DNA of 37,144 bases, taken from Eubacteriales bacterium. GTDB lineage: Bacteria > Bacillota > Clostridia > Oscillospirales > CAG-272. Below are positions 8,459 to 37,144 of this stretch, piece after piece (within the stretch, counting starts at the first letter, position 1; each line of letters begins with the position of its first letter). Both the position numbers and the translations under genes were made by a program. The notes beneath the pieces were generated by a model. That model was not told where the DNA came from. It made no database searches and saw only the letters and a list, made by a program, of their open reading frames with translations. Location: the NCBI GenBank assembly GCA_045633385.1, contig JAZQYE010000225.1, forward strand, positions 1 to 37,144, read 5' to 3'.

Positions 8459-8487
8459 ATTATAGCACACCCGCCCGGCGTTTGCAA
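8459..8487 (-). promoter_or_regulatory. Promoter of nagA
   Basis: On the minus strand: TTGCAA (8482-8487), 17-nt spacer, TATAAT (8459-8464), preceded by TGTGC (extended -10). Confidence 0.55.
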
Positions 8488-15656: not shown

Positions 15657-15667
15657 ATAGGAAATTG

Positions 15668-15755
15668 ATTATTTTGGCAAATCTGTCGAAAGGCAGAGAC
15701 GCAAAGCTTGGTGGCTAAGCAAAGGATATTTGTATGCTCGACCGGTTGCAAACTG
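15668..15755 (+). promoter_or_regulatory. Cyclic-di-GMP-I (GEMM-I, Rfam RF01051-type) riboswitch aptamer
   Basis: GGCAAATCTGTCGAAAGGCAGAGACGCAAAGC (15676-15707) matches the invariant GEMM-I core: GGCAAA, a hairpin capped by a GAAA tetraloop, then GACGCAAAGC. The second hairpin carries a tetraloop-receptor-like GCTAAG...TATGC. Confidence 0.85.
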
Positions 15756-16501: not shown

Positions 16502-16519
16502 CAAGGAGTTTACAGTAGC

Positions 16520-17197
16520 ATGAATGACAAGATTTTAGAGCTGTTTGGGGGACAAAATAATTTGACCTGGCAGGTTATTTTGATGAATATCCTGTTTTCT
16601 GCCTTTTTGGGCGTAATCATTTACCTCTCTTATTACCTGACGCATCGCGGAACCATTTACAGCAAAAAGTTTAACGTTTCGCTGGTGGTGCTCACCGTTC
16701 TCACGGGTACGGTCATGACGGTCATCGGCAACAACCTGGCGCTCTCGCTCGGTATGGTCGGTGCGCTCTCTATCGTTCGTTTCCGTACGGCGATCAAGGA
16801 TGCGCGCGATACGATGTATATCTTTTGGGCGATCATCGTTGGTATCTGCTGCGGTGTCAGCGACTTTTTGGTATCCTCCATCGGCAGTGCCGTTGTTTTT
16901 CTCATTCTGTTTATCTTCCATTCGATCAAAAACGACAAGAGAATGCTGTTGATCATTCGTGCAAAGCGCGATCTCGGCGAGCCGATCCAAGCCGCAGTAT
17001 TCAATTTGTTTGACCGCAAGGCTGTTTTGCGCGTGCGCAACACCACACAGGATCGCGTGGAGATGATCTACGAGATCTCCTCCGAGCTGTTGCAACACGC
17101 CGAAAGAGGTAAGCACAGCGTATGCGATAAGATCTATGAGCTTGGCGAGATCGAATACGTCAACATCGTCATGCAAAACGACGAGATCTCCGGTTGA
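16520..17197 (+). CDS. DUF4956-family integral membrane protein
   Basis: 225 aa with 4-5 hydrophobic segments. GALSIVRFRTAIKDARDTMYIFWAIIVGICCG is the hallmark DUF4956 block. The soluble C-terminal tail is about 90 aa. Confidence 0.8.
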   Translation: MNDKILELFGGQNNLTWQVILMNILFSAFLGVIIYLSYYLTHRGTIYSKKFNVSLVVLTVLTGTVMTVIGNNLALSLGMVGALSIVRFRTAIKDARDTMYIFWAIIVGICCGVSDFLVSSIGSAVVFLILFIFHSIKNDKRMLLIIRAKRDLGEPIQAAVFNLFDRKAVLRVRNTTQDRVEMIYEISSELLQHAERGKHSVCDKIYELGEIEYVNIVMQNDEISG

Positions 17198-17201
17198 TTG
17201 A

Positions 17202-18689: not shown

Positions 18690-18697
18690 TCTGAGAC

Positions 18698-20866: not shown

Positions 20867-20891
20867 AACGTGATTTTGGAAAGGAGCTATT

Positions 20892-22157
20892 ATGATTGAA
20901 ACACTGCTATGGATCTATATTGCGGTCTGTTTGTCGCTGATTTTTTTTCAATGCCTGTTTATTGCAATCATCGCGCTCCGTTCCTATTTTGACCGTCGCG
21001 TGATAGAGCGCAGGTATCGGGAGATCGTCGGTCAGCTTGAGCGGATCTCCCTCAACCAGCCCGTTGCCGACGAGCATCAAAGCTTTTTGAAAAAAGAGCT
21101 CTTTCTTACCCCTTCGCTCTATTGCTACGAAAAGGCGTTGCGTCGGGTGTTTGACGAGATTGAAAACGGTACGCTTGCTTTGCGCGACCCGAACGAGATC
21201 ACAAACGTGATCATCGATATTCGTCACCGTGCCAAAAAAGGGGACGAGAGATCCAGAGGACACTCTAAGATCCGCATGAAGCTGCGCCCCAAAAAGTCGC
21301 TGATCCAACCGCTTGCCAAGGAGCTTGCGGAGCGCTATTTGGGTGAATATGTTCGCCAAACCGCCCCTGCCATCGTTTCTTTGACCGCATCCTATCGCAA
21401 AAAGGACAATATCGTTCACCTGTTTTACATATTCATGCTCAAAAAGTACGGCTATTTACGCCATTGCTACACGTCTGAGCTGGTTGCAAATTTGCGCGAT
21501 TTGTTAGACGACGGCGATTCGGTTTGCGCCGAGGGAATCCTGTTGGCAGTGTATCAGATCGGAGATCCCCACATTACGCTGGACGTTTTACGGCAGGTCG
21601 ATCAAATAGACCGATTCCTGCACCCCAAAATCGTCAGTGACGGATTGCTTTCGTTTGCGGGCGATGCGCTGTCTTGGCAAAAGCTGATGCTGGAGCACTT
21701 GCACGAGTTTTCGGAAACGATGCAGGTCAATCTGCTCAACTACCTGCGCTTTGCGTCGGGTGACCACTGCGAGCGCGTTTTGCAGATGCTTCAAAACGAA
21801 GAGACTTATGACGAGGTGCGTTTTTCCTGCATTCGTTATTTCGGCAAATATCCCTATGAGCCCGCTTACGATCTGCTTGCCGCGTTTGCCGCAGGCATTC
21901 CCGAACAGCGCATCGAATACGCTATCGTTGCGCTTGCCGTTCTCCGACGCTACCCGCGTCAGCGAACGATCGATATTTTGCGTGCACAAATCGGCAGCTT
22001 CAATTGGTTCGTTCGTTACAACGCGACCGAAAGTCTGGAGACCCTTGGCATCGAATATCAGGATCTGGTCGATATTTTTGACGGTAAGGATCGCTTTGCA
22101 AGAGATATGCTGCAATATCAATTCGACCAAAGATATATTCTTGACGGGGAGGTTTGA
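20892..22157 (+). CDS. Membrane-anchored hypothetical protein with HEAT/PBS-lyase-like repeats (tentative)
   Basis: RBS AAAGGAG. N-terminal TM LLWIYIAVCLSLIFFQCLFIAIIAL. Helical-repeat character, e.g. NWFVRYNATESLETLG resembles the VRxxAAxALG HEAT-like unit. Confidence 0.7.
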   Translation: MIETLLWIYIAVCLSLIFFQCLFIAIIALRSYFDRRVIERRYREIVGQLERISLNQPVADEHQSFLKKELFLTPSLYCYEKALRRVFDEIENGTLALRDPNEITNVIIDIRHRAKKGDERSRGHSKIRMKLRPKKSLIQPLAKELAERYLGEYVRQTAPAIVSLTASYRKKDNIVHLFYIFMLKKYGYLRHCYTSELVANLRDLLDDGDSVCAEGILLAVYQIGDPHITLDVLRQVDQIDRFLHPKIVSDGLLSFAGDALSWQKLMLEHLHEFSETMQVNLLNYLRFASGDHCERVLQMLQNEETYDEVRFSCIRYFGKYPYEPAYDLLAAFAAGIPEQRIEYAIVALAVLRRYPRQRTIDILRAQIGSFNWFVRYNATESLETLGIEYQDLVDIFDGKDRFARDMLQYQFDQRYILDGEV

Positions 22158-22159
22158 GA

Positions 22160-23575
22160 GTGAAATACGATTTTATCAACGCCGTGGCGGAATTTTTAAA
22201 GGGTATTACGGTTGGCTACGGTACGTATCTTGTTCTTTATTCCACCTTTCTGTTCGTTGCGGTCATCGTAGGTGCGCTGGTTCTGTATTACCGTAATAAG
22301 CGCATGCGGTACCAGAACGTAGTGGAGAATGAGTATCAGATCCCCATTACCATCGTCGTTCCCGCTTATAACGAGGAGGTCACGGTCGTAGAGACGGTAA
22401 AGTCTCTTTTGACGCTTGAGTATCGCTCCTACGAGATCATCGTTGTGGACGATGGCTCCAAGGATAATACCTCGGGCGTTTTGCGCGAGGCATTCGATAT
22501 GCACCCCGTGCGCCGACCGATCCGCAAGCAGATACCCTGTAAGGACGTTGACACGATTTACGAGTGCTTTACCGAAAAGGTTCCGCTCGTGCTGGTCAGA
22601 AAGATCAACGGCGGAAAGGCAGACGCCTTGAATATGGGAATCAACGCCTCCAGATTTCCGTACTTTATTTGTATGGACGCCGACTCCGTTTTGCAGGCAG
22701 ATTCCTTAATTCGCATTACCCGTCCCGTAATCGAAAACGACGATATCGTTGCCGTTGGCGGCGTGGTACGTCCCTGTAACGACGTCGAATTGGAGGGCGG
22801 ACGCGTCAAGCACTATCAGCTCCCCAAAAACCTGGTGGCTTGTATGCAGGTCGTGGAGTACGACCGCTCGTTTTTGGCTACCCGTATCCTCTTTGACCAA
22901 TTCAACGGCTCTCTCATTATTTCGGGCGCGTTTGGATTGTTCAAAAAAGAAGCCGTCATTGCCGTGGGTGGCTACGACAGCAAAACGATGGGTGAGGATA
23001 TGGAGCTTGTAGTCGATCTTCACAAATACTGTACGGCAAACAAAAAGCCCTACGCGATCAAGTATGCAACCGATGCGGTTTGCTGGACGCAAGCTCCCGA
23101 ACGCTTAAAGGACCTTTGTAAGCAACGCAAGCGTTGGCATCTCGGACTTTTTCAAACGCTGATGAAGCATCGCTCCATGGCAACCGATTTCAAAAGCGGC
23201 CCCGTCAGCTTTATTTCCTATGCGTATTTCTTTATTTACGAGTTTTTGTCACCCTTTATCGAGTTTTTCGGCTTGATCGTTACGTTCTTATCTCTTGTTG
23301 CCAAGCTGATCAACTTTAAATTCTTTTTGATGTTTACCGCAATTTACGCATTGTTTGGCGCGGCACTGACGCTGACCTCGTTTTTTGCGCGAACACAGAC
23401 CTCCGAGATCAAGCTGACCGTGCGCGACGTTGCAAAAGCGGCTTTGATGTGTTTGCTGGAGATCGTTTTTATGCACAACGTTATGACGTACGTGCGCGCC
23501 ACCGCCTTTATCGGCTACCGTAAAAAGAAGCTGCAATGGGGACGGATCGAGCGAAAGAAAATCAACTTAAAGTAA
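22160..23575 (+). CDS. Processive family-2 glycosyltransferase (IcaA/PgaC/BcsA-like polysaccharide synthase)
   Basis: ORF track 22154..23575 (TTG). GTG 22160 is preferred (GGGGAGG 7 nt upstream). VVDDGSKDNT, CMDADS, GEDMEL and QRKRW (23123-23137) form the D,D,D,QxxRW signature. N-terminal TM plus about four C-terminal TM segments; no PilZ domain. Confidence 0.88.
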   Translation: MKYDFINAVAEFLKGITVGYGTYLVLYSTFLFVAVIVGALVLYYRNKRMRYQNVVENEYQIPITIVVPAYNEEVTVVETVKSLLTLEYRSYEIIVVDDGSKDNTSGVLREAFDMHPVRRPIRKQIPCKDVDTIYECFTEKVPLVLVRKINGGKADALNMGINASRFPYFICMDADSVLQADSLIRITRPVIENDDIVAVGGVVRPCNDVELEGGRVKHYQLPKNLVACMQVVEYDRSFLATRILFDQFNGSLIISGAFGLFKKEAVIAVGGYDSKTMGEDMELVVDLHKYCTANKKPYAIKYATDAVCWTQAPERLKDLCKQRKRWHLGLFQTLMKHRSMATDFKSGPVSFISYAYFFIYEFLSPFIEFFGLIVTFLSLVAKLINFKFFLMFTAIYALFGAALTLTSFFARTQTSEIKLTVRDVAKAALMCLLEIVFMHNVMTYVRATAFIGYRKKKLQWGRIERKKINLK

Positions 23576-23587
23576 GGAGGAGAGACC

Positions 23588-26500
23588 ATGCAAAACAAAC
23601 GGCTTTTATGGCTTATGCCGATGATGATCGTCCTGCTGATCTCCATGCTTACGGTTACGGCGGGTGCCGCGGTTTCCTTTTCCGAGGAGAACCGAGGCGA
23701 CAGTCAAAGCGTGTTTATTGCGGGCAACCCCGACCTGTATCCCATCGAATACTTCAACCCCAATACCAAACGCTACGAGGGCGTAATGCCGATTTTGTTC
23801 GAGCGTATTTCCGAGGAGTGCGGACTTGATTTTACCTACATCTACGCATCTGCCGAAAACAAGCAGCAGTATCTGGCGCAAAACGGGCAGGTAGATATCG
23901 TATCCGCGTACGTCAACGATCGCATCGATACGCAGTACGTTCCGCAGGAGAGTGCGTTGCTTCACTTTACCTATAACGGGCGCACCCAAACGGCAGTCAT
24001 TGGCTTTACGTCGGTTTGTGACCAAACGGTAAAAGAGAAGATCAGTACGTATCTGGAGGCGTTGAGCGAGGAGGAGCTGACGGCAATTACCGTTTCCTAC
24101 GTTATGACGCACCAAAGAGAGAGCGCCAAAAACGCATGGATCTTGCCAACCGTTATCGCGGTGATATTGGTCGCGCTTGTCGTTTTGGGCTTGCTGTTCT
24201 ACCGCAATCAAAAGAGGACGGTGGAGCAAAAAAAAATCAACCCCAAAAGCGGACTGTACAACAAGAGCTATCTGGACGTTATTTTGTATTCCTTGATCCA
24301 CGATTTCGTCCGCAAGCGCTATTATGCGGTTTACGTCTCCGCAAATTATGAAAACCTGCTCAAATACTACACCAAGCCCCAATTGGTCGCGCTGTCGGAT
24401 TATATATCGCGCACCTTGCAGGCTGAATTGCAGGATCGCGAGTTTGGCATTCACGTAGGTGAAGACGTTACCTTTTTGCTGTTGATACAAGCCCCCAATC
24501 AGGGGCAGGCAGAGCAAAGGGTTGACGCGCTGATTCAAAGGCTGAACCTTGAAAACGAGATCTTGAGCGACGATTATCGCGTAACGATCTCGGCAGGCTG
24601 TTACGGACTTTCGCAGGCACGCGAGAGCGGCGAACGCATTCTCGACGTAACGAGCGAGGCATATCTTTACGCCGAGGAAAACGCGCTTCGGTACTTCTTT
24701 ATCGACCCTGTATTCCTGAAGCGGGTGGATCGTAAGGCGCTTTTGCAAAAGGAGACCGTTCAAGCGATCAAAAAGGATCAGATCCTGTTCTATCTGCAAT
24801 ATATTGTGGATATTCAAAGAAACGTCATCATCGGTGCAGAGTCGCTCTCCCGTTGGGAGCACCCGCGTGAGGGACTGCTGTTCCCGGGGGCTTACATACA
24901 GCTGATGCAGCACGCAAACAACATTCATTTGTTGGATTTTTACATGCTTGAAAAAAGCTGTCAACAGCTTGCACGCTGGAACACGGACGAAGCGAACGGC
25001 TTGAAGATCTCCTGCAACTTTGACCGACAAACCGTTGCACGGGAAGATTTTTACGACCGTGTCATGGAGATCACCGAAAAATACGGCGTCGATCGCAGTC
25101 GCCTCGTTTTGGAGATCACCGAGGATACCTTTGTTTACAACAAAGAAAACGTGATGCAAAACACGGGCAGACTGCGTAAGGAAGGCTTTAACATAGCCCT
25201 TGACGATTTTGGCAGGGGAAGCTCTTATTTCCAGAATCTGATCGAGTATCACGTCTCCCTTCTCAAGCTGGATCGCATCTTCGTTGCCATGATGAAGACC
25301 GCGCCCGGCGAAACGCTCATCCGCGGAATCGTAACGGCGGCGCACGATCTTGGACTCCACGTACTGCAAGAGGGCGTAGAGACCTACGCAGAGCTGCAAA
25401 CGTGCAAGGCGTTTGGCATTGATATGGTGCAGGGCTTTGTGTTCTCCCGCGTCATTCCCGGCATCGAGGGCGATCGCGTCAGACGCCGTTTGGCTGCTCG
25501 TCTGTTGGAGGAGGGCGCACCCCAAAACAGCTTGCAGACCTATGCCGACGTCAACCCCGACGCCGAGGAGGATAACGTTTACGAGGACGATGACGAGGAG
25601 GGAAGCGCTTACGGTACGCGCTACCGTTGGAGCTTTTTGGCTCGTTTGCACCGCGCTCCCGAGGAGATCGCCGGTTACTATTCGGAGCTGAAGAACGCAT
25701 TTTTGAAATACAAAAAGGTTCGTTCCCGTATCAGCTGGAGCTACGATACCGTCAGCTATCGCCACGCACCTGCGGCAAAATTCGTCATGCGTCAAAAATC
25801 CTTGTTGCTCTATCTTGCTCTGCCGCCCGCAGAATTTGAGGAAAGCAAGTATTTCTTTGTAGATGCATCCGAAAAGAAGAAATACGAGCAGGTTCCGCTT
25901 CGCTTAAAGATTCGCGGCAGCCGCGGCTTTAAGCACGCCTTGGAGCTGATCGAGGAGCTTGCCAAGCGGCTGGAATGGAAGGAACAGACCGATTTTACCG
26001 CACAGGATCACACCTTGCCGTTCAAAACGGTAGAGGAGCTGATCGAGGTAAAGCTGATCAAAATAAACGGCAAGGCACTTGCCGTAGAGGAGCTTCCCGC
26101 ACCGCAAAAGGTGCAAAGCAACATTTCTTATCAAGCACCGAATTTTTCAATTGTAGAGCCTGTTAAAGAGGAAACATCAATGGAGGAAAATACCATGGAA
26201 AACAATTCGACCATTACGCAAAATATTGCGGACTTTATTTACGGTACCTATTACCGTTGGAGCTTTACCGCACGCCTGCACCAAGCGCCCGAAAACGTTG
26301 CCGAGTATTACAACGATATCAAAAATGCCTTTTTGCGCTACAAAAAGGTCAAGTCGCGCATCAGCTGGAGCTGTGATACCATTACGTTTGGCAAGGAGCA
26401 GCTTGCAAAATTCGTGCTGACGCAAAAAACGCTGTACGTATATCTGGCACTCTCTCCCAAGGACTTGGAGGGAACCAAGTACTTCTTTACCGACGAGTCG

Positions 26501-27214
26501 GATATCAAAAAGTACGAAAAGGTTCCGGTTCGCGTGCGCGTTCGCAGTGAGCGCGGTGTGAAGTACACCATCGAGCTGATCGAAAAGATCGCCGCTCTCA
26601 AGGATCTGCAGCTTGCAAAGAACTTTGAGGTCACCGATTTCACGCTCCCGCACGAAAACGTTGAAACGCTGTTGGATCGTCAATTGATCAAAAAGATCGA
26701 TTTGATCGAATCCGTCGTGGTCTCCGAGGAGGAGAGCGAGGAGGAGAGCGTAGCGGCTGCTGCCGTTTTGGAGGAGGCACCCGTTGAGGAAGCACCTGCC
26801 GAGGAGCCGGTCGTTGAGGAAGCACCCGTCGAGGAAGCACCCGTCGAGGAGCCGGTCGTTGAGGAGGCACCCGTCGAGGAAACGCCTGTAGAGGAGCCGG
26901 TCGTTGAGGAGCCCGTTGTGGAAGAAACTCCCGTTCAGGAGCCCCCCGTTGAAGAGCCGGTACAGGAAGAGCCCAAAGCAGAAGAGACCGTTCCTGCGCA
27001 AGCAACGTTCACCGTGGTTGAGGAAACGCCCGCAGAGCAGATTCAAAACGCGGATCTTGCCGAGGCTGAGACCATTCACGTTGCCTTCCTGCAAAAGCTT
27101 TGCCAGCAGTTTGACGCCGACGAATTAAACGCGCACGTCAAGGTGATCTACAAAAAGAAGAGAGAAAAGAAGACGAGTATCTTCGACATCATCATGAAGA
27201 AGAACCGCTCTTGA
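23588..27214 (+). CDS. Multidomain c-di-GMP signalling protein: SBP-like ectodomain, TM, degenerate GGDEF, EAL, two copies of an unassigned module, acidic EExPV repeats
   Basis: RBS AAGGAGGAG. Signal/TM followed by IAGNPDLYPIEYF (type-3 solute-binding-like) and a TM at aa 184-205. The GGDEF position reads VGEDV (24455-24469). The EAL domain has ESLSR (24839-24847), CNF, EITE, DDFGRGSS, KLD, EGVET and QGF all present. Confidence 0.9.
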   Translation: MQNKRLLWLMPMMIVLLISMLTVTAGAAVSFSEENRGDSQSVFIAGNPDLYPIEYFNPNTKRYEGVMPILFERISEECGLDFTYIYASAENKQQYLAQNGQVDIVSAYVNDRIDTQYVPQESALLHFTYNGRTQTAVIGFTSVCDQTVKEKISTYLEALSEEELTAITVSYVMTHQRESAKNAWILPTVIAVILVALVVLGLLFYRNQKRTVEQKKINPKSGLYNKSYLDVILYSLIHDFVRKRYYAVYVSANYENLLKYYTKPQLVALSDYISRTLQAELQDREFGIHVGEDVTFLLLIQAPNQGQAEQRVDALIQRLNLENEILSDDYRVTISAGCYGLSQARESGERILDVTSEAYLYAEENALRYFFIDPVFLKRVDRKALLQKETVQAIKKDQILFYLQYIVDIQRNVIIGAESLSRWEHPREGLLFPGAYIQLMQHANNIHLLDFYMLEKSCQQLARWNTDEANGLKISCNFDRQTVAREDFYDRVMEITEKYGVDRSRLVLEITEDTFVYNKENVMQNTGRLRKEGFNIALDDFGRGSSYFQNLIEYHVSLLKLDRIFVAMMKTAPGETLIRGIVTAAHDLGLHVLQEGVETYAELQTCKAFGIDMVQGFVFSRVIPGIEGDRVRRRLAARLLEEGAPQNSLQTYADVNPDAEEDNVYEDDDEEGSAYGTRYRWSFLARLHRAPEEIAGYYSELKNAFLKYKKVRSRISWSYDTVSYRHAPAAKFVMRQKSLLLYLALPPAEFEESKYFFVDASEKKKYEQVPLRLKIRGSRGFKHALELIEELAKRLEWKEQTDFTAQDHTLPFKTVEELIEVKLIKINGKALAVEELPAPQKVQSNISYQAPNFSIVEPVKEETSMEENTMENNSTITQNIADFIYGTYYRWSFTARLHQAPENVAEYYNDIKNAFLRYKKVKSRISWSCDTITFGKEQLAKFVLTQKTLYVYLALSPKDLEGTKYFFTDESDIKKYEKVPVRVRVRSERGVKYTIELIEKIAALKDLQLAKNFEVTDFTLPHENVETLLDRQLIKKIDLIESVVVSEEESEEESVAAAAVLEEAPVEEAPAEEPVVEEAPVEEAPVEEPVVEEAPVEETPVEEPVVEEPVVEETPVQEPPVEEPVQEEPKAEETVPAQATFTVVEETPAEQIQNADLAEAETIHVAFLQKLCQQFDADELNAHVKVIYKKKREKKTSIFDIIMKKNRS
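25610..26695 (+). repeat. Intragenic tandem duplication with a 630-nt (210-aa) period
   Basis: Copy 1 starts at 25610 (YGTRYRWSFLARLHRAPEE...KNAFLKYKKVRSRISWSYDT). Copy 2 starts at 26240 (YGTYYRWSFTARLHQAPEN...KNAFLRYKKVKSRISWSCDT). About half the residues are identical across roughly 150 aa, and synonymous sites have diverged. Confidence 0.85.
26771..26986 (+). repeat. 15-nt tandem repeat encoding about 14 EE(A/T/P)PV pentapeptides
   Basis: GAGGAAGCACCCGTC / GAGGAGCCGGTCGTT units in frame: EEAPV EEAPA EEPVV EEAPV EEAPV EEPVV EEAPV EETPV EEPVV EEPVV EETPV QEPPV EEPVQ EEPKA. Confidence 0.9.
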
Positions 27215-27262
27215 TCTGCCAAAGCTTTCCACCTTCATCAAGTAAAAGGAGCGTAAGCCAAC

Positions 27263-28525
27263 TTGAAAAAGCATTTATTATTGATTGTAATTTGTTTTGC
27301 ATTGTTACTGACATCATTTGGTTGTACGGCCGATTCCACAGAAACCGAGAGCACGCAAACGCCTTCGCAAACTACCAAAGATCCTTCGTTGCAGGAGACG
27401 ACCGATCCCTCCGTTGATCAAGAGCCGACCGCCAAAGCCATTTGGCAGGACGCCAATAACGTCGTTCTTCTTTGGAGCAACGAGGCAAATCACGAGTACA
27501 GCATCTACCGAAGCAACAGCCCCGAGGGGAGCTTTGCGTATCTCGGCAAGAGCTTGACGGGCTCTTACCGCGATGCCACGGCAACCTATCCAAACGCGTA
27601 CTACTACAAAATAAAAGACAAAGATCTTAAAACACAGCAGGTACGGGAGCTTGAGCCGATCGGCGCGGTCGTTGCGCCCGAGGAGGTGGACTCTGTCAGC
27701 GTGATCATGTATCACAATTTTGTCAGCCAAGAGGATATCGAAAACGGCATTGAGTTTGAGGAATATTCCATCTCTCCCGCCGATTTTGAAGCGGATCTGA
27801 TCTGGCTGAAGGAAAACGGCTACGTTACCATCACGTCAAGAGAGCTGTTGTATTATCTGGAGAACAAAGAGCCCATTCCGCAAAAGGCGGTCATTCTGTC
27901 TATCGATGACGGCTCGTGGGGCGTATATACCAACGCTTGGCCGCTCTTGAAAAAGCACGGCATGAAGGCGGATTTCAACGTCATCGGCGCGCAGATCGAT
28001 GCTACGTGGGAGCTGCTTCATTCTGGCGGAACGCGAGAGGGCGAGCCCGCACCTTTTTGCACGTGGGAGGAGCTGATCGAAATGCAGCAAAGCGGAGAGA
28101 TTAACGTATGCTCCCATACCTACGGTATGCACGTGTATAACAAAGAAAAGCGCGTGGGCATGAGCATGATGGAAAACGAGACCCCCGAGGCGTTTGCACA
28201 AGCCGTTCAAAAGGACTACAATCTGGTTTTGAGCTGCATGGAGGGCTGGACGGGCATTATGACCGAAACGGTGGCTTATCCCTACTCCAAGAGGAGCGCG
28301 ACGGGTGACCGTATCGTTTTGGAAAACACGGGGTACAAAATTTTGATGGCGGGAAACGGCGCCAGAGGCACGGCAGGGAACTACTTTGTCAGGGGCTGTG
28401 ATTTTGTCAATCAGCTCACGCTCATGAGCCGCCCGTGCCGAATGGACGGAACCCCCATCAGCGTCTATCTTGAAAACATTCAAGTAAGGGATGCAAAAAA
28501 CGGAGTCAACGTTTCGAATGCGTAG
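27263..28525 (+). CDS. Polysaccharide deacetylase (CE4, IcaB/PgaB-like) lipoprotein with an N-terminal FN3-like module
   Basis: TTG start. MKKHLLLIVICFALLLTSFGC lipoprotein signal. VIMYHNF, SIDDGSWG (TFDDG-type motif) and CSHTYGMH (H-S/T-x-x-H motif). Confidence 0.85.
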   Translation: MKKHLLLIVICFALLLTSFGCTADSTETESTQTPSQTTKDPSLQETTDPSVDQEPTAKAIWQDANNVVLLWSNEANHEYSIYRSNSPEGSFAYLGKSLTGSYRDATATYPNAYYYKIKDKDLKTQQVRELEPIGAVVAPEEVDSVSVIMYHNFVSQEDIENGIEFEEYSISPADFEADLIWLKENGYVTITSRELLYYLENKEPIPQKAVILSIDDGSWGVYTNAWPLLKKHGMKADFNVIGAQIDATWELLHSGGTREGEPAPFCTWEELIEMQQSGEINVCSHTYGMHVYNKEKRVGMSMMENETPEAFAQAVQKDYNLVLSCMEGWTGIMTETVAYPYSKRSATGDRIVLENTGYKILMAGNGARGTAGNYFVRGCDFVNQLTLMSRPCRMDGTPISVYLENIQVRDAKNGVNVSNA

Positions 28526-28607
28526 TGGCTTAAAGACGAGGGCAGTGCCTGCATTGATAGCCCGATGCATTGGTTATACAAATGAGAAATCGGCACGATA
28601 AAACAGA

Positions 28608-28655
28608 AGAGAGAGTAACACGGAAATAAGGACCGTGAAGCTCTCTCTTTTTTTT
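28608..28655 (+). terminator. Intrinsic terminator closing the 8-gene operon
   Basis: AGAGAGAG (28608-28615) pairs with CTCTCTCT (28641-28648). An inner CACGG/CCGTG stem is present, followed by a T8 run. Confidence 0.8.
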
Positions 28656-28764
28656 CGTTTTGTGAGGCTTTTGCTATCGCAATAGTGGAGTTGCTGTGCA
28701 GTGAAGTTGAAAATCGGTGATTTTGTAAACATATTTTCAAATGCCGCTTTTTTAAAAATAAGGT

Positions 28765-28793
28765 TTGACATTTCAGGTATATTGTGCTATAAT
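28765..28793 (+). promoter_or_regulatory. Consensus sigma-A promoter of the giant surface-protein gene
   Basis: TTGACA (28765-28770), 17-nt spacer ending TGTGC, TATAAT (28788-28793). Confidence 0.7.
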
Positions 28794-28838
28794 GAATAGG
28801 TAAAATTTTGTAAAAAATCTTTTTACGAGGTGGAAAAC

Positions 28839-31800
28839 ATGAAAAGAAGTCTGTTGACCAGGATCACATCGGCATTTTTGGCGTTCGTGATGGTCTTTTT
28901 GATGATTCCCGCAAGCGTTTTTGCTTCTTTTGCGGATGCGTTGCAAAACGGCGCGGATTCCCGAAAAGACATGACGATCGTGCTTGTGTACGATGCAGAG
29001 GATTTCTACAACATTCGAAACGATCTGAAGGGTACCTATATCCTGATGAACGATATCGATCTTTCGGGCTACTCCAATTGGGAGCCGATCGGTACCGTTG
29101 AGGCGCCGTTTGACGGTGAATTGCTCGGCTCGGGATATACGGTTCGCGGATTGCAGATCACGGCCCTGCCCGAGAGCGAGGACGGCGATCCCGTTTACGT
29201 TGGCTTGTTTGGCTACAACACGGGCTTGATCCGCGATTTGCGCCTGGAGGGAAGCGTAACCGTCAATGCACAAGGCGTTCATGCGTACTTGGGCTCTTTG
29301 GTTGCGTACAATGACGGAAACGTGATCAACTGCTACGACGGCGTTGATTTTACGGAGTATGCGGTTGCCGATAATTCCCTGTACGGCGGCGTTAAGAATT
29401 TGGATAAGACATCCGGTCAGGCGTTTGAGCTGGGTGCTGACGGCACCTTGACCTTAAAGGGAAGTGGCAAGACCTATGCAAACTACACCGTTCTCATCGG
29501 TGAGAGCACGCTCTCTGCCATTTACATCTTTTTGCAAAACGTCAATCTGACCGATTTTGTGCTGGATGCAAGCGCATGGACAAAGGATATTTATATCATC
29601 AGCCAAGGCACTTCCAACAGCATTCGCGCAAAGGAGGATGCAATTGCCATCAACGCGCCCAATGCAAACGTGATCGTATTGGGTGACGCACCGCTGACGA
29701 TTTACGGCGGTAATGGTAGCAATGGAGAGGCAGGAAAAACCGAACAAAAAGACGGAACTGACGGAAAGAGCGGTAAAGCTGCGATTTCCGCAAACACGCT
29801 GACTGTATCGTTGGATAACGAGAGTGTACTTGCGCTTTACGGTGGAAACGGCGGCGTGGGTGGCAATGGTGCCGTTGGTGATAGCGGAAAAGGTGAAACT
29901 GCGGCTCCCGGTGGAACCGGAGGAAAAGGTGGAAACGGTGGAGATGGTTCAACCGCATTAACTTGCAGTTCGCTTGTTGCTGTTACTTTGATCAATTTTT
30001 ACGCCGGTGTAGGTGGTAAAGGTGGCGACGGAGGCAAAGGTGGACAAGGCGGAACCGGAAAATCTACCAGCTTCTATACAGATTTTGGGGGCGCGTTAGG
30101 TACACAGTCAGATGCTGCCAAGAATTGGGCGAATAGTTTTGAGAGTAGTGCCAAAAGTGCAAACAAAGGCGGAACCGGTGGAGACGGAGGCTATGGTGGA
30201 AAAGGAGGAGACGCATTGCCTCCGATCGTAGCATCCAATGTTGTAGGTTCATTCAATCAATTTGCAGGAACAATTGGCATTTCCGGAAATGGTGGAATGG
30301 GCGGAGCCGGTGGAAGCGGAGGTACATGCTATGTTAGTGCTTGTTATCAAAACTGGGGCGACAAATATCATAACAGAACATGGTATGGTTCTGTTGGTGA
30401 TAGTAAAGAGTCTGTACAGCGCGACAACTATGGAAATGGTATATCACAGGTATCTTGGAGCATTCAAACGATTTCCGGCGGCAAGCAATACAATCTTTAC
30501 ACGGTAGCGGACAAGATCACCTACGGTTCGGCTCTGCAAAAGGCGAACGGCTATGGCGAAAAGCTCGTGTCTGTCAACAGCGCAGAGGAGCAGGCGATCG
30601 TTGCAAAGCTGCAAGCTCTTGCGGGTGACGGACAATATTGGCTCGGTCTGACCCGTAAGGCGGTTTACCAAAACGAAGCAGCTCTTGATCTTTGGGTATG
30701 GGAGGACGGAACCGAGTTCTCCGAAAACAATCCCGCCGTTTACACCAATTGGGGGGCGGGTGAGCCGAACAACAGCGGCGAAAACGAGTGGTATGCGCAT
30801 TTGTCCACGGGAGGCTTTTGGAACGATGCCATGGGCGACTCTCTGCTTGCAGGTTTTATTACCGAAAAGGACGTTGCGGTTACCGTTGCTCCCACCATTG
30901 TCAAGACCTTTTACGGCTACCACACGGTGGATGCCGTAGAGACCTGCGCGGGGGAGACGTTGGATACCAACTATCCCACCGATATTTACGTAGATGCAAC
31001 CTCGGTGCAGGGGGCTTACTACGTTGGAACCGAAAGCAACCCCTACGCGGTCTTGCTGGCGGTCTCCTCCAAAACGGACAGCGCGTATAACGTGCACTCC
31101 AAAACCGAGTTCATTTATTTTGGCGCGTTTGGCGGTTGTACCACCGTCAAGGCGGTCAAGATCCCCGAAAACGTGCGCGGCATCGGACCTCGCGCATTCT
31201 ACGATTGCGAAAAGCTGGTGCAGGTCATTACCACCGCACCCATCAACGAAATTGCAAGATACGCGTTTGCCGAGTGCAATGCGTTGAGCGATATGAAGCT
31301 GGTCGATCACAAAGAGGATCTGCGCATCGGTCAAAACGCGTTCCAAAACTGCTCTGCCTTGACCGATATCGTCATTCCCGCAGGCACGACACAGATCGGT
31401 GCTTACGCATTTGCGGGAGCAAAGAAGCTCAAGGCGATCACCATTGCCGCAGGTATTGAGGAGCTTGGCGCACACGCCTTTGCTAACTGCGAAAAGCTGA
31501 CCACCGTAACCGTTGCGCAAAATGCCAAATTGAAGGTGATCGGTGACTTTGCGTTTGAAAATTGCGTATCGCTCACGGGCGTTCGTTTTCCCGATACCCT
31601 GGAGCGCATTGGCATAAGCGCGTTCCAAAACAACACCTCGTTGCAGTACATCTACGTTCCCGCGGCGGTCTCCTTTATTGGTGCAAAGGCGTTTTACGCT
31701 TGCCCTGCGGTGACCTCTATCGTAGTAGCCGAGGGGAACGAGACCTATTATTCCGGCACCTCCAACTGCTTGGTGGAGCGTGCGAGCGGACGTATTTTCG

Positions 31801-34800
31801 TCGGCTGTCAGTACAGTGATATTCGTCTGTCGGGCGGAACGCTGGTCGAGTCCGAGGTCTTTATGGACTTGAACTTTACCCAGCCCATCGAAATTCCCGA
31901 AAACGTCACCTTAGAGCAACACGCGTTCGTGCGCTGCACGGGTGAGATCATCTTTTTGGCGTATGCTCCCGAGGTGCCCAAGGCATACGAGGGTGAGACA
32001 GAGGCGGAGCAGGCAGACCGCGAGGCAAAGCAAGCGGAGCTTGACCAATATATTGCAACCTACACCTCCGTGCTGCAGGATTGCAACGGCTTGACCATTT
32101 ATGCGTATGCAAATTTGGGCGAGCTTTGGCAGGGTGCAGGCTCCGGCTTTGCCCCCAACTATAACCAGATCAAGGATAGTGGTACCTGCGGCGACGCAAG
32201 ATACGTCCTGATCAAAACCATTGATCGATATTATAACAAGGCGCTTGGCGTTTTGCTTTGCTACGGCGACGGCACACTCGGCTCCTTTGATCCCAAGGGA
32301 AAGAATTCCTACCACGATTACACCACCGACCAATTGGGCGTTAGTATCAAAGAGGCGATCGTCAGCAACGGCATCGACGTCATTGGTGCAAATTCGTTCG
32401 TCAATTTTGGTATGATTACGTCCCTGCGTTTGGGTAAGGACGTGCAAAAAATTGAGGCAGGTGCCATTTACGGCAACATTCAGCTTGCAAGTATCTTCTT
32501 TGAGGGCGACTGTCCCTTGATCGACAAGCACGCGTTTACGAGCGACCCGAGCAAGAGCCAGGGCAATGACTCCCATTTGAAGATCGCATACGATAAGGAT
32601 TCGCACGGCTGGAGCTATAACGGCAAGGCTTATCAGTCCTTTATCCACGGCGAGGGTCTTTCGGTCAAGGAGTACGTGGACGGCACGACCTATCTGGTCA
32701 CCACCGATATGGATCTGACGCCGATCGACCGTAACAACACCGACCGCTACGGTATCATTTACGAGATCCAATACAACCCCCACAGACCCGAGGAGGCTGT
32801 ATCGGCTATCGTCAGCGGCTACAACCCCGTTACTAGCACCGAGAAGGATATCGTCATTCCGTTGCGCATTCTGAGCGGTACCGATCCGCTCCCCGTTATC
32901 GGAATCAAGGAGTCTGCCTTTGGTGCGGGAATCAGCAAAACAGAGCTTGAGACCATTACCATCCAAACGCAAAACATCGAAAGCATTGGCTCCAAGGCGT
33001 TTACCAAGTGCGAGGCACAAATTTATTTTGTTGGCGATAACGTCAAAGTGGTTGATGATAAAGAGGTTCCCAAAATAGAGGTTGCCGCCGATGCGTTTGA
33101 CCAAGGCTCTTACATTGTGGTCAACCAGAGCGCTAAGGGCTGGGGCAGTACGCTTCAAAGCGCTACGGTCTACCAATCTGCCGTTCTGACGGGAACGCAG
33201 GATCAAAACGGCGTTTATTACACCGTCGATCTGCAAAACAACACGGCGATCGTAGGTAAAAAGTCCTCGCAAAGCGACGAGGAAAGCTCGGTCAACACCA
33301 GCAACGCGACCCTGCGTAACGTCGTCATTCCCGCATTCGTTACCTACAACGACCGCCTTTACATGGTAGTCGGCTTTGACCGCTACGCATTTTACGGCAA
33401 CAAGAACGTAGAAAGCATTACGTTCAGCCGCTTTGTAGGTGAGGGACAGAGCGAGGCAGTTCCCGCAATTTGGGATTGCACCTTCCGCGATACCGATCAC
33501 CTCAAGAGCATTACGGTAGATGGAACCAACCTGCGCAACTACGTTGCCGTTGACGGCGTTTTGTACGGCAACGCGCTGGAGGCAGAGGGCGAAAATCTTG
33601 TCTTTACCCGACTGATCAAGTATCCCGAGGCAAAGGCGCCTGCAAACGGCGTTGTCAACCTTCCTTCCGATGCGACCTACAATATTACGGTCATTGAAAC
33701 CTACGCCTTTGCAGGAAACGAGAATATCAAGACCGTAAACCTTGCTTCGGTCAACGTTATCGGTTCTCACGCATTCTGGAACTGCACCGCCCTGACCACG
33801 CTGAGCGGCAATTATCAGATCCACGACGTGGGCGACTCCGCGTTTGAAAACACGGCGCTCACCAAATTCCAATTCTCCGATACGCTTGCCACCATCGGCA
33901 CGCGCGCCTTCTACGACTCCAAGCTTTCGGGCGTGCAGGAGATCAACCACAACGTCATTTCGATCGGTGACGGCGCGTTTGGAAGATGTACCGATATTTC
34001 GGGCTTTGTATTCCGCGATTACGGTGCAGGCGAATCGGTGCGTTACCTGACCCAAAGCATTACGGGCAACTACCGCGTTGACCTGCAAGGCGAGGGCAAC
34101 GTTTACGGCGTACTGTTTGATTTCAGCAATGCGCACCTGCCCGTTTTGTTGCAGTATGCAATCACGTTTAAGCAAGGGGAAAACGAGTCTATCGTTTACG
34201 ATATGAGCGATGGCACGCATCTGGTTCCTTACCAGATCGCGTCCGAGGCATTCTGGGGCTCCCGTTACCTCAAGGAAGTGATCCTGCACGACGATACCAA
34301 GCTGGTTGGCAGCCAGGCGTTTGCCGACTGTGCAAAATTGGAGTACGTCAAGTTTGGTGCAGGCTACTACGGCAGCAGCACCGACCCCGTCTCCGGTATT
34401 TACAGCTACAACCTCTTTATCGATAGCTCCGCGCTCGATTACATCGAGGTATCTAAGGATAACCCGTACTTCTGCAACGATAGCAACGGCGTATTGTATT
34501 CCAAGGATCTTTCCGTCCTTTACTGCTATCCCGCAGGTATTCAACGCGTCAGCTACAACGTTCCCGCATCTGTTACAAAGATCTACGATTCCGCCTTTTA
34601 CGGCAACACCAACGTCAAGCAGATCGTTGTGGGCACTACACAGCACATCTACATCGGTTCCCGTGCGTTTGGTAACTGTACCAATTTGAATACGGTTTAC
34701 TACGTGTGCGAAACCGTTCCCACCGTGGGTGAAAAGATCTACGATAACACCCCCGATACGCTTTACACGCGCTTTAAGTCGAGCTTTGCACAAGAGGGCT

Positions 34801-37144
34801 GGAAGGGCTTTGAGGGCGGTAAAAACAACGCGGAGGTGCGTTGGTGCGAGCGCAAGATCGGCTCTTACGAGGTGATCAACGAGGTACCCAACGGCTCGGT
34901 CGAGACCAACGATTACCTGATGTTCATCAAGGGCACCGACGGCTCGGCGCTCAGCGACGTTTACCTCATCGTTACCGTTTACGCCATCGATTTTTACACC
35001 GAGGGCGAGGGCGAGGATGCGGTAGAGGTCATGACGCTCATTCCGCACAAGTTCTACTTTTACACCGACGACCTTGGCAGGATCAATTTCTCCACCGTGA
35101 TCAACGATAAAACGCTTGACCGCCTGATCCACGTTTACGCGCAAAAGGAAGGCTACTACACCTACGATCAGGATATGTATATCGACAACGATATGCTCAT
35201 CTCCTATCTGACCCTGACGCAAGAGCCCGACGTATTTGGCGTTAGCTGTGGAAACAAGGACATCAACAGCCAAACGGCAGACCTCAACCTGTCGCTCTAC
35301 CGCGAGAGCTACACCTACACCGTAAACGACGGCACGACCTCTACCGAAATGGAAAAGATCGTGTACGAGAGCATTACCATCAAGGTTCTCGGCTTCTGGG
35401 ATCCTGCCTGCACCGATCCGAGCTTCTCGCTCATTCAATGCGGCAAAAAGCTGGATGCCATTGTAGAGGTGGACGGCAACAACTGCACCTTTACGGTCAG
35501 TGCCGATCAATTGGTCAAGGATATGCCCATCGAGGCGCGCGTTGCCGTGAAGAACGGCAAGGATATTTTGGAGTGCCGCAAGGTGCTCAATATCAACGTC
35601 ATCGATTTTGAATTGGACGAGAACAACGTCAAGTTCGACTTTGGCACCAATATCTCCTTGGCTGACGGTCCGGAGCTGTTTAAGATGCTCTTTGGCTCGG
35701 CAGAGTTTGAGCTGGAGCTCTCCAAAAACGTCAAGTTCAAGACCGAGATCAACGAAAGTCAGGTCATTTTGAGCCTGACCGCCAAGTATTCCACCCCCGG
35801 AAACAAGGATAACCCCAAAAAGGGCTACGAATCCAATTTGAAGCCGCACGGAAAGGGAAGCTACTTCTACCAATACTACGACGGTTTCTTTACCTACAAT
35901 ATTCGCTTTGTGCAATCCGAGGCAGACCACTTCTTCTATTATCGCATCTACGTTTACCGCGGCTTGCCGGGTATGGACTACGGAGATTCGATCATCGAGG
36001 CATACGGCTCTGTCAACCTCTCTCCGTTTGAGGCACAGCTCATCGGACGCGAAAAGGTGCGCGCACGTGCGCTGATGATCTTTGGTACGACGAGAAACAA
36101 GATCGTTGAGACCATTACCGACAAGTGGGAGGAGACCTTTGACGGTACGCTGGATCTGAACAAGCTGTTTGAGGATGGACTGCCGCACGAGTGGAACCTT
36201 AAGGATCTGTTAGAGGATTACAAGCCGATCAAGGAAGATTTTGTTGAGATCAAGAACGACGGCAAAACGCAGGTCAGCAACAGCCACAAGTTTGATGCAA
36301 GCGTTGAGGGTAAGCTGGTATTTGAATACTCGCGCGAGGATGGTATTCATCTGGCGTCCGGCTCGGTAAAGGGCGCGGTCAAATACACCTTTAAGCACAA
36401 TTCCCAATACGTCATTTGGACCATTCCCGTTATTTTGGAGGTCGAGGTATCGGTCAGCGGCGAGGTCAATTTGAAGCTGCGCTTTGACAGCGAGGAAAAG
36501 CCCGTTGACTTAGAGGAGCTTTCGGTCAAGCTTGCCGCAGATCTGAACGCATCCCTTGGTATCGGATGCTCCATTGCTTCCATCGGTCTTTACGGCAACG
36601 TCGGTACGGTGGTGATCTTTGATATTCTTCCCGAAACCGACGTTCGCTCCTGGGAGATCCACGGTGAGTTTGGCGCATACGTCAAAATTTTGTGGTACAC
36701 CAAAAAATTTGCCATCTGGTCGGGTAAAAAGTACATCATCGGCGGTGAGGAGCAAGCCGTGGCGGCAAACACCTGGAGATTTGCACGCGCCGCAATGTTC
36801 TTAGCCGACACCTACGAATACTCTACCGACTGTGAAGAAAACGCACAGATCATATCCTTTGGAAACGAGCATTATAAGATCTACTTCCATACGCAAATGG
36901 AAGGGGACGTGTACGACGAGTACAACTGCATCAAGCTCGTGATGTCCAAGTGGGATGGCAGTCAATGGGGTGAGCCCGTTGTCATCGACACAGCGGACGG
37001 CTACAGCGATGCCGCATACACGGTATTTACGGATGCCAAGAACGTATATATCGCCTACACCCAGCAAACCAAGTACATGACTGCCGAAACCATCAACGAT
37101 ACCGAGGCAGGTGCCGAGGGGTTGTCTCTCAAGCTGATCACGCT
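28839..37144 (+). CDS. Giant secreted multidomain protein (more than 2768 aa, 3' end outside the window): GLUG-like, Gly-rich, C-type lectin, BspA LRR_5 blocks, further unassigned domains
   Basis: Not in the ORF track because there is no in-window stop. I translated the frame by eye. ATG 28839 follows RBS GAGGTGG, and an in-frame TAG at 28797-28799 bounds it upstream. No stop occurs through 37144, and the reading ends with exactly 2 leftover nt. The N-terminus MKRSLLTRITSAFLAFVMVFLMIPASVFASFADA is a signal peptide, and recognisable domains occur throughout. Confidence 0.88.
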   Translation, partial: MKRSLLTRITSAFLAFVMVFLMIPASVFASFADALQNGADSRKDMTIVLVYDAEDFYNIRNDLKGTYILMNDIDLSGYSNWEPIGTVEAPFDGELLGSGYTVRGLQITALPESEDGDPVYVGLFGYNTGLIRDLRLEGSVTVNAQGVHAYLGSLVAYNDGNVINCYDGVDFTEYAVADNSLYGGVKNLDKTSGQAFELGADGTLTLKGSGKTYANYTVLIGESTLSAIYIFLQNVNLTDFVLDASAWTKDIYIISQGTSNSIRAKEDAIAINAPNANVIVLGDAPLTIYGGNGSNGEAGKTEQKDGTDGKSGKAAISANTLTVSLDNESVLALYGGNGGVGGNGAVGDSGKGETAAPGGTGGKGGNGGDGSTALTCSSLVAVTLINFYAGVGGKGGDGGKGGQGGTGKSTSFYTDFGGALGTQSDAAKNWANSFESSAKSANKGGTGGDGGYGGKGGDALPPIVASNVVGSFNQFAGTIGISGNGGMGGAGGSGGTCYVSACYQNWGDKYHNRTWYGSVGDSKESVQRDNYGNGISQVSWSIQTISGGKQYNLYTVADKITYGSALQKANGYGEKLVSVNSAEEQAIVAKLQALAGDGQYWLGLTRKAVYQNEAALDLWVWEDGTEFSENNPAVYTNWGAGEPNNSGENEWYAHLSTGGFWNDAMGDSLLAGFITEKDVAVTVAPTIVKTFYGYHTVDAVETCAGETLDTNYPTDIYVDATSVQGAYYVGTESNPYAVLLAVSSKTDSAYNVHSKTEFIYFGAFGGCTTVKAVKIPENVRGIGPRAFYDCEKLVQVITTAPINEIARYAFAECNALSDMKLVDHKEDLRIGQNAFQNCSALTDIVIPAGTTQIGAYAFAGAKKLKAITIAAGIEELGAHAFANCEKLTTVTVAQNAKLKVIGDFAFENCVSLTGVRFPDTLERIGISAFQNNTSLQYIYVPAAVSFIGAKAFYACPAVTSIVVAEGNETYYSGTSNCLVERASGRIFVGCQYSDIRLSGGTLVESEVFMDLNFTQPIEIPENVTLEQHAFVRCTGEIIFLAYAPEVPKAYEGETEAEQADREAKQAELDQYIATYTSVLQDCNGLTIYAYANLGELWQGAGSGFAPNYNQIKDSGTCGDARYVLIKTIDRYYNKALGVLLCYGDGTLGSFDPKGKNSYHDYTTDQLGVSIKEAIVSNGIDVIGANSFVNFGMITSLRLGKDVQKIEAGAIYGNIQLASIFFEGDCPLIDKHAFTSDPSKSQGNDSHLKIAYDKDSHGWSYNGKAYQSFIHGEGLSVKEYVDGTTYLVTTDMDLTPIDRNNTDRYGIIYEIQYNPHRPEEAVSAIVSGYNPVTSTEKDIVIPLRILSGTDPLPVIGIKESAFGAGISKTELETITIQTQNIESIGSKAFTKCEAQIYFVGDNVKVVDDKEVPKIEVAADAFDQGSYIVVNQSAKGWGSTLQSATVYQSAVLTGTQDQNGVYYTVDLQNNTAIVGKKSSQSDEESSVNTSNATLRNVVIPAFVTYNDRLYMVVGFDRYAFYGNKNVESITFSRFVGEGQSEAVPAIWDCTFRDTDHLKSITVDGTNLRNYVAVDGVLYGNALEAEGENLVFTRLIKYPEAKAPANGVVNLPSDATYNITVIETYAFAGNENIKTVNLASVNVIGSHAFWNCTALTTLSGNYQIHDVGDSAFENTALTKFQFSDTLATIGTRAFYDSKLSGVQEINHNVISIGDGAFGRCTDISGFVFRDYGAGESVRYLTQSITGNYRVDLQGEGNVYGVLFDFSNAHLPVLLQYAITFKQGENESIVYDMSDGTHLVPYQIASEAFWGSRYLKEVILHDDTKLVGSQAFADCAKLEYVKFGAGYYGSSTDPVSGIYSYNLFIDSSALDYIEVSKDNPYFCNDSNGVLYSKDLSVLYCYPAGIQRVSYNVPASVTKIYDSAFYGNTNVKQIVVGTTQHIYIGSRAFGNCTNLNTVYYVCETVPTVGEKIYDNTPDTLYTRFKSSFAQEGWKGFEGGKNNAEVRWCERKIGSYEVINEVPNGSVETNDYLMFIKGTDGSALSDVYLIVTVYAIDFYTEGEGEDAVEVMTLIPHKFYFYTDDLGRINFSTVINDKTLDRLIHVYAQKEGYYTYDQDMYIDNDMLISYLTLTQEPDVFGVSCGNKDINSQTADLNLSLYRESYTYTVNDGTTSTEMEKIVYESITIKVLGFWDPACTDPSFSLIQCGKKLDAIVEVDGNNCTFTVSADQLVKDMPIEARVAVKNGKDILECRKVLNINVIDFELDENNVKFDFGTNISLADGPELFKMLFGSAEFELELSKNVKFKTEINESQVILSLTAKYSTPGNKDNPKKGYESNLKPHGKGSYFYQYYDGFFTYNIRFVQSEADHFFYYRIYVYRGLPGMDYGDSIIEAYGSVNLSPFEAQLIGREKVRARALMIFGTTRNKIVETITDKWEETFDGTLDLNKLFEDGLPHEWNLKDLLEDYKPIKEDFVEIKNDGKTQVSNSHKFDASVEGKLVFEYSREDGIHLASGSVKGAVKYTFKHNSQYVIWTIPVILEVEVSVSGEVNLKLRFDSEEKPVDLEELSVKLAADLNASLGIGCSIASIGLYGNVGTVVIFDILPETDVRSWEIHGEFGAYVKILWYTKKFAIWSGKKYIIGGEEQAVAANTWRFARAAMFLADTYEYSTDCEENAQIISFGNEHYKIYFHTQMEGDVYDEYNCIKLVMSKWDGSQWGEPVVIDTADGYSDAAYTVFTDAKNVYIAYTQQTKYMTAETINDTEAGAEGLSLKLIT
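30445..30870 (+). other. C-type lectin-like domain (Lectin_C, PF00059-like) inside the giant CDS
   Basis: GEKLVSVNSAEEQAIV, YWLGLT, GEPNN (EPN at 30762-30770) and FWNDA (WND at 30819-30827), in the canonical order and spacing of Ca-dependent carbohydrate-recognition domains. Confidence 0.75.

Follow-up and report, generated by a model that had tools for sequence, protein, structure and literature searches.

A cysteine-free C-type lectin-like domain with an EPN/WND site in a predicted giant leucine-rich-repeat protein of an Eubacteriales bacterium

In animal C-type lectins, the Glu and Asn of an EPN tripeptide, a further Glu, and the Asn and Asp of a WND motif ligate the primary Ca2+ and, via this Ca2+, the 3-OH and 4-OH of the bound sugar, with EPN being the determinant of mannose-type specificity. 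The prototype EPN lectins are the carbohydrate-recognition domains (CRDs) of the rat mannose-binding proteins MBP-C and MBP-A (PDB 1rdi and 2msb), while human langerin (CD207; PDB 3kqg, 3p7f and 4ak8), a trimeric type II receptor in the membrane of animal cells, has both canonical disulfides. Here, a C-type lectin-like domain (CTLD) was analysed that is encoded in a 37,144 nucleotide (nt) stretch of DNA from an Eubacteriales bacterium, an uncultured, Oscillospiraceae-like member of the gut Clostridia (assembly GCA_045633385.1, contig JAZQYE010000225.1, positions 1 to 37,144 of the forward strand; the whole stretch is referred to as the window). Langerin is the best match to this domain in both sequence and structure, and the two have EPN, Glu, WND and the WIGL core in common. 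In contrast to langerin, the window domain is free of cysteine, its loop after WLGL is longer, and it forms one module within a secreted bacterial protein that is at least 2768 amino acids (aa) long. The five-residue site and the spacing EPNN-x4-E-x-(Cys/Tyr) ... WND are as in MBP-C and MBP-A, whereas the auxiliary Ca2+-site acids and two disulfides of the collectins are replaced in the window domain by Arg, Trp, Ala, Tyr, Gly and Thr.

Comparable bacterial proteins include the Lectin_C surface proteins (WP_423055595.1, WP_013334653.1, WP_179051983.1, and the proteins P0078, P0082 and P0076 retrieved here), which, like the window protein, are very large secreted multidomain proteins with cysteine-poor or cysteine-free EPN/WND domains. 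P0078 and P0082 also share with it a Gly-rich segment directly before the lectin domain, but the group differs in its partner domains (ChW, M23, Flg_new, MACPF, Calx-beta, Ig-like, cohesin/dockerin) and has low identity to the window protein outside the common modules. A role analogous to the one predicted here is filled by MpPA14, a Ca2+-dependent module of the giant RTX adhesin of Marinomonas primoryensis that ligates sugars through vicinal hydroxyls and attaches cells to surfaces or to one another; it is non-homologous, having an unrelated PA14 beta-sandwich fold in a Gram-negative, type I secreted adhesin (PMC8092209). The C-terminal CTLD of intimin and invasin, distantly related in fold, forms the tip of these bacterial adhesins (PMC8286594), but it lacks the EPN/WND Ca2+ site, binds proteins (Tir, integrins) and gives no PF00059 match. 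With a probability of roughly 60%, the window domain is a Ca2+-dependent module for sugars of the mannose, glucose, N-acetylglucosamine (GlcNAc) or fucose type, located N-terminally in a giant secreted BspA-type leucine-rich-repeat (LRR) protein that is its own transcription unit.

Identity and fold of the lectin domain

The domain and its motifs are located as follows:

30459-30872, plus strand: C-type lectin-like domain, aa 541-678, cysteine-free (PF00059, AlphaFold model, Foldseek)
30564-30593, plus strand: LVSVNSAEEQ block
30639-30650, plus strand: WLGL core motif (WIGL block), aa 601-604
30762-30770, plus strand: EPN tripeptide, E642-P643-N644, with E642 and N644 as predicted primary Ca2+ site ligands
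30786-30794, plus strand: E650-W651-Y652, with Glu650 (30786-30788, the Glu of NEWY) as a predicted Ca2+ ligand, Trp651 at the position of an auxiliary-site Asp/Asn of collectins, and Tyr652 at the second Cys position
30819-30827, plus strand: WND motif, W661-N662-D663, with N662 and D663 as the last two predicted primary-site ligands

A first-pass annotation made from the sequence alone had assigned a C-type lectin carbohydrate-recognition signature to 30445-30870 (aa ~535-680). All peptides that it cited are present in the plus-strand frame, its coordinates fit the domain as delimited here, and the two checks that it had named, a PF00059 match and a compatible predicted fold, both came out in its favour. 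In the profile search, PF00059 (Lectin_C) matched with 41 bits where the gathering cut-off is 22.6 (E 3.6e-10), covering positions 7 to 96 of the 107 in the profile, and the identity of aa 541-678 is far beyond chance. No NCBIfam model matched the lectin domain, nor did any match the N- and C-terminal parts of the protein. A phmmer search of all PDB sequences returned 102 C-type domains, with langerin first (E 2.7e-8, 37 bits, 30% identity), followed by CD23, DC-SIGN, SRCL, MBP-C, SP-D and the mannose receptor. The WLGL motif belongs to the best-kept part of the domain, with the Trp present in 58 and the Gly in all 69 of the 69 top domains.

An AlphaFold2 model of the domain, built from a 31-sequence alignment (A1), had a mean predicted local distance difference test (pLDDT) score of 92.8 and a predicted template modelling (pTM) score of 0.88, and showed helices at residues 22-31 and 42-55 of the model and a strand order as in CRDs. 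Foldseek analysis of the model against the PDB gave 511 matches at E<=0.001, the best 50 of which were all animal C-type CRDs (E ~1e-9), with template modelling (TM) scores of 0.74-0.84 for the langerin, CD23 and DC-SIGN CRDs; the langerin superposition scored 0.74 when normalised to the query and 0.83 when normalised to the target. The region aa 541-678 is a genuine C-type lectin-like domain, its CTLD fold being confidently predicted by a model that matches solved CRDs.

C-type-lectin folds are the usual targets of diversity-generating retroelements (DGRs) in gut bacteria and phages (PMC10743442, PMC6642488), which raises the alternative of a hypervariable receptor-binding fold diversified by such an element. 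The profile match is to canonical PF00059 rather than to an FGE/Mtd-type fold, however, and the domain is internal in the protein rather than C-terminal. The DNA of the domain is not repeated in the 37-kb window, either as another copy or as a template-like sequence (best off-diagonal blastn match 23 nt, E 0.64), which excludes a DGR variable protein within the window, and no reverse transcriptase was found among the window open reading frames (ORFs) scanned. The chance that the domain is a DGR target is negligible.

The Ca2+/sugar site, the absent cysteines and the bacterial relatives

Column-by-column alignment with langerin and rat MBP-C (reference sequence verified against PDB 1rdi) showed that all five primary-site side chains, E642, N644, E650, N662 and D663, are kept, in agreement with the EPN, Glu and WND residues that the first-pass annotation had assigned to the site. 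The spacing EPNN-x4-E-x-(Cys2) is the same as in langerin and MBP-C, with Tyr at Cys2 in the window domain, and the ligand residues are the majority residues in the 752 related domains described below. The auxiliary-site acids of collectins (the Asp of the 'TD' that follows WIGL, and the residue lying between the Glu and Cys2) correspond to Arg606 and Trp651, positions at which langerin has Lys and His and is thus also non-acidic. Because its auxiliary positions are non-acidic as in langerin, the domain appears to be a single-Ca2+ domain of the langerin kind, and we infer from the alignment that it would bind one Ca2+.

The stretch aa 521-700 is entirely free of cysteine. The canonical Cys positions are occupied by Ala569 (30543), Tyr652 (30792), Gly666 (30834) and Thr675 (30861), and the C1-C4 and C2-C3 disulfides of the four-cysteine animal CRD framework are therefore missing from the window domain. 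The absence of the canonical cysteines had been recognized by the first-pass annotation; alignment with langerin places the second Cys at the Tyr of NEWY rather than at the Trp. Cysteines among related domains were counted in 752 full-length domains, which were taken from the 152 best proteins among 1850 matches (E<=0.001) of a HMMER scan of 1.84 billion representative proteins and re-aligned to the A1 profile. All four canonical cysteines were present in 444 of these domains and none of the four in 155, and 88 of the 155 have retained EPN as well as WND. Where Cys is absent, the most frequent residues were Ala at C1, Tyr or Phe at C2, Gly at C3 and Val or Ile at C4, with the second-Cys column containing 479 Cys, 148 Tyr and 44 Phe. 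A bacterial disulfide-free CTLD subgroup was defined in this analysis from the aligned domains, and its pattern (Ala; Tyr or Phe; Gly; Val, Ile or Thr; plus EPN and WND) fits the window domain. As judged from these alignments, the cysteine-free state is a recurrent trait of a bacterial subgroup and no peculiarity of the window protein.

The nearest relatives by per-domain score were P0078 (82 bits, 44% identity) and P0082 (80 bits, 51% identity), both of which have a complete EPN/E/WND site, compared with 37 bits for the best animal structure, langerin. P0078 comprises 13 Flg_new (Listeria-Bacteroides) repeats, MACPF and Lectin_C; among the other relatives, P0100 and P0133 have clostridial ChW repeats, P0133 being WP_423055595.1 of Acetobacterium carbinolicum with the record name 'lectin-like protein', and P0041 has a type IX secretion (T9SS) tail. 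A tblastn search against plasmids identified the same domain type, with the canonical cysteines absent, in Gloeothece verrucosa PCC 7822 (GEPNNAGNEDYAVF...RWNDAPPN) and Nostoc, and also in a Clostridioides plasmid protein; the RefSeq proteins WP_013334653.1 (Gloeothece verrucosa) and WP_179051983.1 (Nostoc) have cysteine-free EPN..EDY..WND domains. The best per-domain matches are thus proteins of bacterial rather than metazoan architecture, and since the nearest relatives sit in bacterial multidomain proteins and the cysteine-free subgroup is itself bacterial, the label 'animal-type' given by the first-pass annotation is wrong as a description of origin. The bacterial subgroup of PF00059 is already known to Pfam and to NCBI naming, and the window domain is a further member of it.

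As a sugar-binding module, the domain would hold one predicted Ca2+ by E642, N644, E650, N662 and D663, and a terminal sugar of the mannose, glucose, GlcNAc or fucose type would be ligated to this Ca2+ by its equatorial 3-OH and 4-OH. In a surface or adhesion protein, the domain may then act as the head that targets glycans, with host mucus, dietary or plant glycans, or the surface of another microbe as candidate external ligands. Several points weigh against this interpretation. Many CTLDs bind proteins or other non-sugar ligands, and the loss of the auxiliary-site acids could weaken the stability of the long loop, which is unusual in carrying the insertion KAVYQNEAALDL, modelled at a pLDDT of 74-86. 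The proposed geometry of the five Ca2+ ligands rests on alignment, surface anchoring is presumed for a protein whose C-terminus lies beyond the window, and no paper with binding data or characterisation of a bacterial PF00059 domain was found in the limited library of literature searched.

Loss of the auxiliary-site acids (R606, W651) would also suit a structural or protein-binding CTLD of the intimin/invasin or natural killer (NK) receptor type, devoid of lectin activity, in which EPN and WND are kept for a structural Ca2+ that, in a domain lacking disulfides, may mainly stabilise the long loop. Most members of the CTLD superfamily bind no sugar (Zelensky & Gready, 2005, cited in PMC8092209). 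In CTLDs that are not lectins, however, the EPN/QPD and WND ligands have typically been lost, whereas the window domain keeps all five and the ligands are also kept in P0078, P0082 and the 88 cysteine-free domains counted above; furthermore, langerin functions as a lectin, its structure having been solved in complex with mannose and with GlcNAc, despite the Lys and His at its auxiliary positions. A CTLD of purely structural or protein-binding function is considered unlikely, though well worth keeping in mind, because the full set of Ca2+/sugar ligands is retained both in the window domain and in its nearest relatives.

The canonical C-type lectin Ca2+/sugar site therefore persists in a sizeable bacterial subgroup in which both disulfides are replaced by a fixed residue set (Ala, Tyr, Gly, Val/Ile), and the main wider interest lies in this natural disulfide-free C-type lectin scaffold. 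If sugar-binding, such domains would be naturally disulfide-free C-type lectins that should be easy to make in the bacterial cytoplasm and useful as glycan probes, and they would add a class of glycan-binding heads on gut-bacterial surface proteins.

Modules and transcription unit of the giant protein

The gene, its control elements and its other modules are located as follows:

28605-28659, plus strand: intrinsic terminator 3′ of the carbohydrate esterase family 4 (CE4) deacetylase gene, a 12+5 bp hairpin followed by U8, at the end of the polysaccharide operon
28765-28793, plus strand: promoter-like site of the lectin gene, TTGACA, 17 nt, TG-n-TATAAT, matching at 12/12 positions in a consensus scan
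28839-37142, plus strand: giant secreted protein gene, incomplete, at least 2768 aa, continuing past the window end
28839-28925, plus strand: putative signal peptide MKRSLLTRITSAFLAFVMVFLMIPASVFA, judged by eye from the translation
28944-30458, plus strand: N-terminal module of ~500 aa directly 5′ of the lectin domain, with a GLUG-like segment, a beta-strand-rich, solenoid-like part and Gly-rich GGxGGxGG repeats
31326-31709, plus strand: best-scoring BspA-type leucine-rich repeat unit, aa 830-957 (PF13306 LRR_5)

The plus-strand frame is open from 28800 to 37142 at the window end, and the likely start is the ATG at 28839, which is preceded by a GAGGTGG Shine-Dalgarno sequence and followed by the signal peptide. 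Between the CE4 stop at 28525 and this ATG there is a gap of 313 nt that holds both the terminator, whose region (28603-28672) folds with -23.8 kcal/mol and a z-score of -3.28, and the promoter-like site, which has an extended -10 and lies 46 nt 5′ of the ATG. A riboswitch in front of the lectin gene was not found. Because a strong terminator and a consensus promoter separate them, the lectin gene is assigned to its own transcription unit, outside the polysaccharide operon. Recent insertion or acquisition of the gene was considered and rejected, as GC content is even along the sequence (0.50-0.54).

The LRR_5 profile matched at E 9e-95 in seven stretches, all located after the lectin domain, and the several LRR_5 units together with the signal peptide identify the window protein, at the level of sequence, as a BspA-type leucine-rich-repeat surface protein. 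Two more BspA-type LRR_5 genes are present in the window, at 335-3349 (plus strand, 1004 aa) and 9393-10856 (minus strand, 487 aa), with no lectin domain in either.

Homologues of the N-terminal module were found as segments in MACPF, thiol-activated-cytolysin and dockerin proteins (including P0166-P0190), and in P0078, P0082 and P0186 the Gly-rich part is followed directly by a cysteine-free lectin domain at the C-terminus. The model of this module had a pLDDT of 75.8, rising to >90 for much of model residues 10-370. Foldseek gave no match to it at E<=0.001 and weak ones to beta-helix proteins and polyproline-II bundles, so the fold was left unnamed because of the weakness of these structural matches; the Gly-rich part is weakly like polyproline-II helix bundles (7jjv; phage gp38 9v85). 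When the N-terminal 520 aa and the C-terminal 751 aa were compared with PDB sequences, nothing meaningful was returned.

No orthologue of the giant protein was detected in a scan of genome contigs with the N-terminal 687 aa. As a protein query, aa 1-754 gave only partial-module matches (<=40% identity over 39% of the query), and the lectin domain found only 4 matches when used in a word-indexed protein search. Exact-sequence look-ups of the CE4 and HEAT proteins of the window returned no record. The order of N-terminal module, CTLD and LRR_5 was found in one other protein only, the metagenomic P0076 (3412 aa; locus L032, 8472-18710), which contains the N-terminal module, two Lectin_C domains and LRR_5, then a terminal cohesin and dockerin, and whose neighbours are housekeeping genes. 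By analogy, the cohesin and dockerin of P0076 hint that proteins built in this way belong to a cellulosome-like or cell-surface assembly.

The adjacent polysaccharide operon

Upstream of the lectin gene lie the following features:

14006-15580, plus strand: dCache-HAMP-GGDEF cyclase gene, just before the riboswitch-headed operon
15666-15753, plus strand: cyclic diguanylate (c-di-GMP)-I riboswitch RF01051, 72.6 bits against a gathering score of 35, immediately 5′ of the VTC gene
15803-28525, plus strand: operon encoding VTC, DUF4956, CotH, a 722-aa protein, HEAT, glycosyltransferase family 2 (GT2), EAL and CE4

The best match of the GT2 protein was PgaC/IcaA (TIGR03937, 152.6 bits against an equivalog cut-off of 422.3) and that of the CE4 deacetylase was PgaB/IcaB (TIGR03938, 110.8 against an equivalog cut-off of 321.9). 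The 'GlcNAc polymer' proposed for the operon by the first-pass annotation is plausible in view of these best matches, but both scores fall below the equivalog cut-offs, so that by these models the operon is like the poly-N-acetylglucosamine (PNAG; pga/ica) system rather than an assigned member of it. As the scores lie far below the cut-offs, the identity of the polymer is uncertain, and a c-di-GMP-controlled, PNAG-like polymer is a fair guess from sequence as the operon product.

For comparison of the operon, 31 loci (L001-L031) from uncultured Clostridia, Oscillospiraceae and Eubacteriales were retrieved with the CE4 protein, several of them in genomes from goat, yak and water-deer gut samples. 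The operon was present in about 20 of the 31, in two gene orders (e.g. L001, 2-11257, and L010, 9301-19990), with the CE4 gene last, after EAL, in close relatives and between VTC and DUF4956 in more distant ones. None of the 31 loci contained a homologue of the N-terminal module or of the lectin domain, and six-frame translation revealed no C-type lectin domain of any kind in them; L030 alone shows weak similarity to the repeat region, at 34% over 114 aa.

The first-pass annotation had proposed that the giant adhesin could dock onto the GlcNAc-type polymer predicted for the operon, which would link the two loci functionally. In this reading the domain would bind the cell's own c-di-GMP-induced, PNAG-like polymer and so tether the matrix to the cell. 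The genes are adjacent with the 313-nt gap described above, a c-di-GMP-I riboswitch heads the operon, and GT2 and CE4 are most like PgaC/IcaA and PgaB/IcaB. Such binding is also chemically possible because, by the chemistry of C-type lectins, beta-1,6-linked GlcNAc should expose a free equatorial 3-OH and 4-OH on each residue, as recognized by EPN sites. The arrangement of the locus argues otherwise: a strong terminator and an independent 12/12 consensus promoter lie between the genes, the lectin gene has no detected riboswitch in front of it, and the polymer is itself of uncertain identity. Comparison of loci points the same way, since the operon is kept in about 20 loci, yet a lectin-domain homologue or any other CTLD occurs in 0/31, and the 3′ genes in the closest locus, L001 (78% CE4 identity), are a GGDEF gene and ordinary-sized ORFs. 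P0076, with the same architecture as the window protein, sits among housekeeping genes, away from such an operon. BspA-type LRR genes are frequent here, and with two others in the window the adjacency of this one to the operon is unremarkable. Binding of the cell's own polymer is accordingly held to be highly improbable, and the claimed link is unsupported; at the level of the locus the message is negative, in that the position of the lectin gene beside the polysaccharide operon is not to be read as functional coupling.

A broader proposal would have the cysteine-free, single-Ca2+ lectin domain hold the cell to its own c-di-GMP-induced, PNAG-like matrix and, more generally, would regard a Gly-rich module plus a disulfide-free CTLD as a portable glycan-targeting head, common to giant adhesins of gut Clostridia and to pore-forming proteins of the MACPF and cholesterol-dependent-cytolysin types. 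This is a very unlikely proposal; if true, the portable lectin head would do in bacteria what lectin-guided targeting of effectors does elsewhere.

Within the operon, the 1208-aa EAL protein (23588-27214, plus strand) has its EAL domain at aa 391-621 and a C-terminal proline-rich, extensin-like stretch at aa 1064-1132, with only the first ~620 residues being conserved in more distant operon relatives. The plus-strand ORFs at 4036-6255, 6346-6726, 6766-7188, 7551-8465 and 18698-20866 are without a Pfam match; the last of these encodes the 722-aa operon protein, which is a real conserved gene product, as it is 56-84% identical across related loci.

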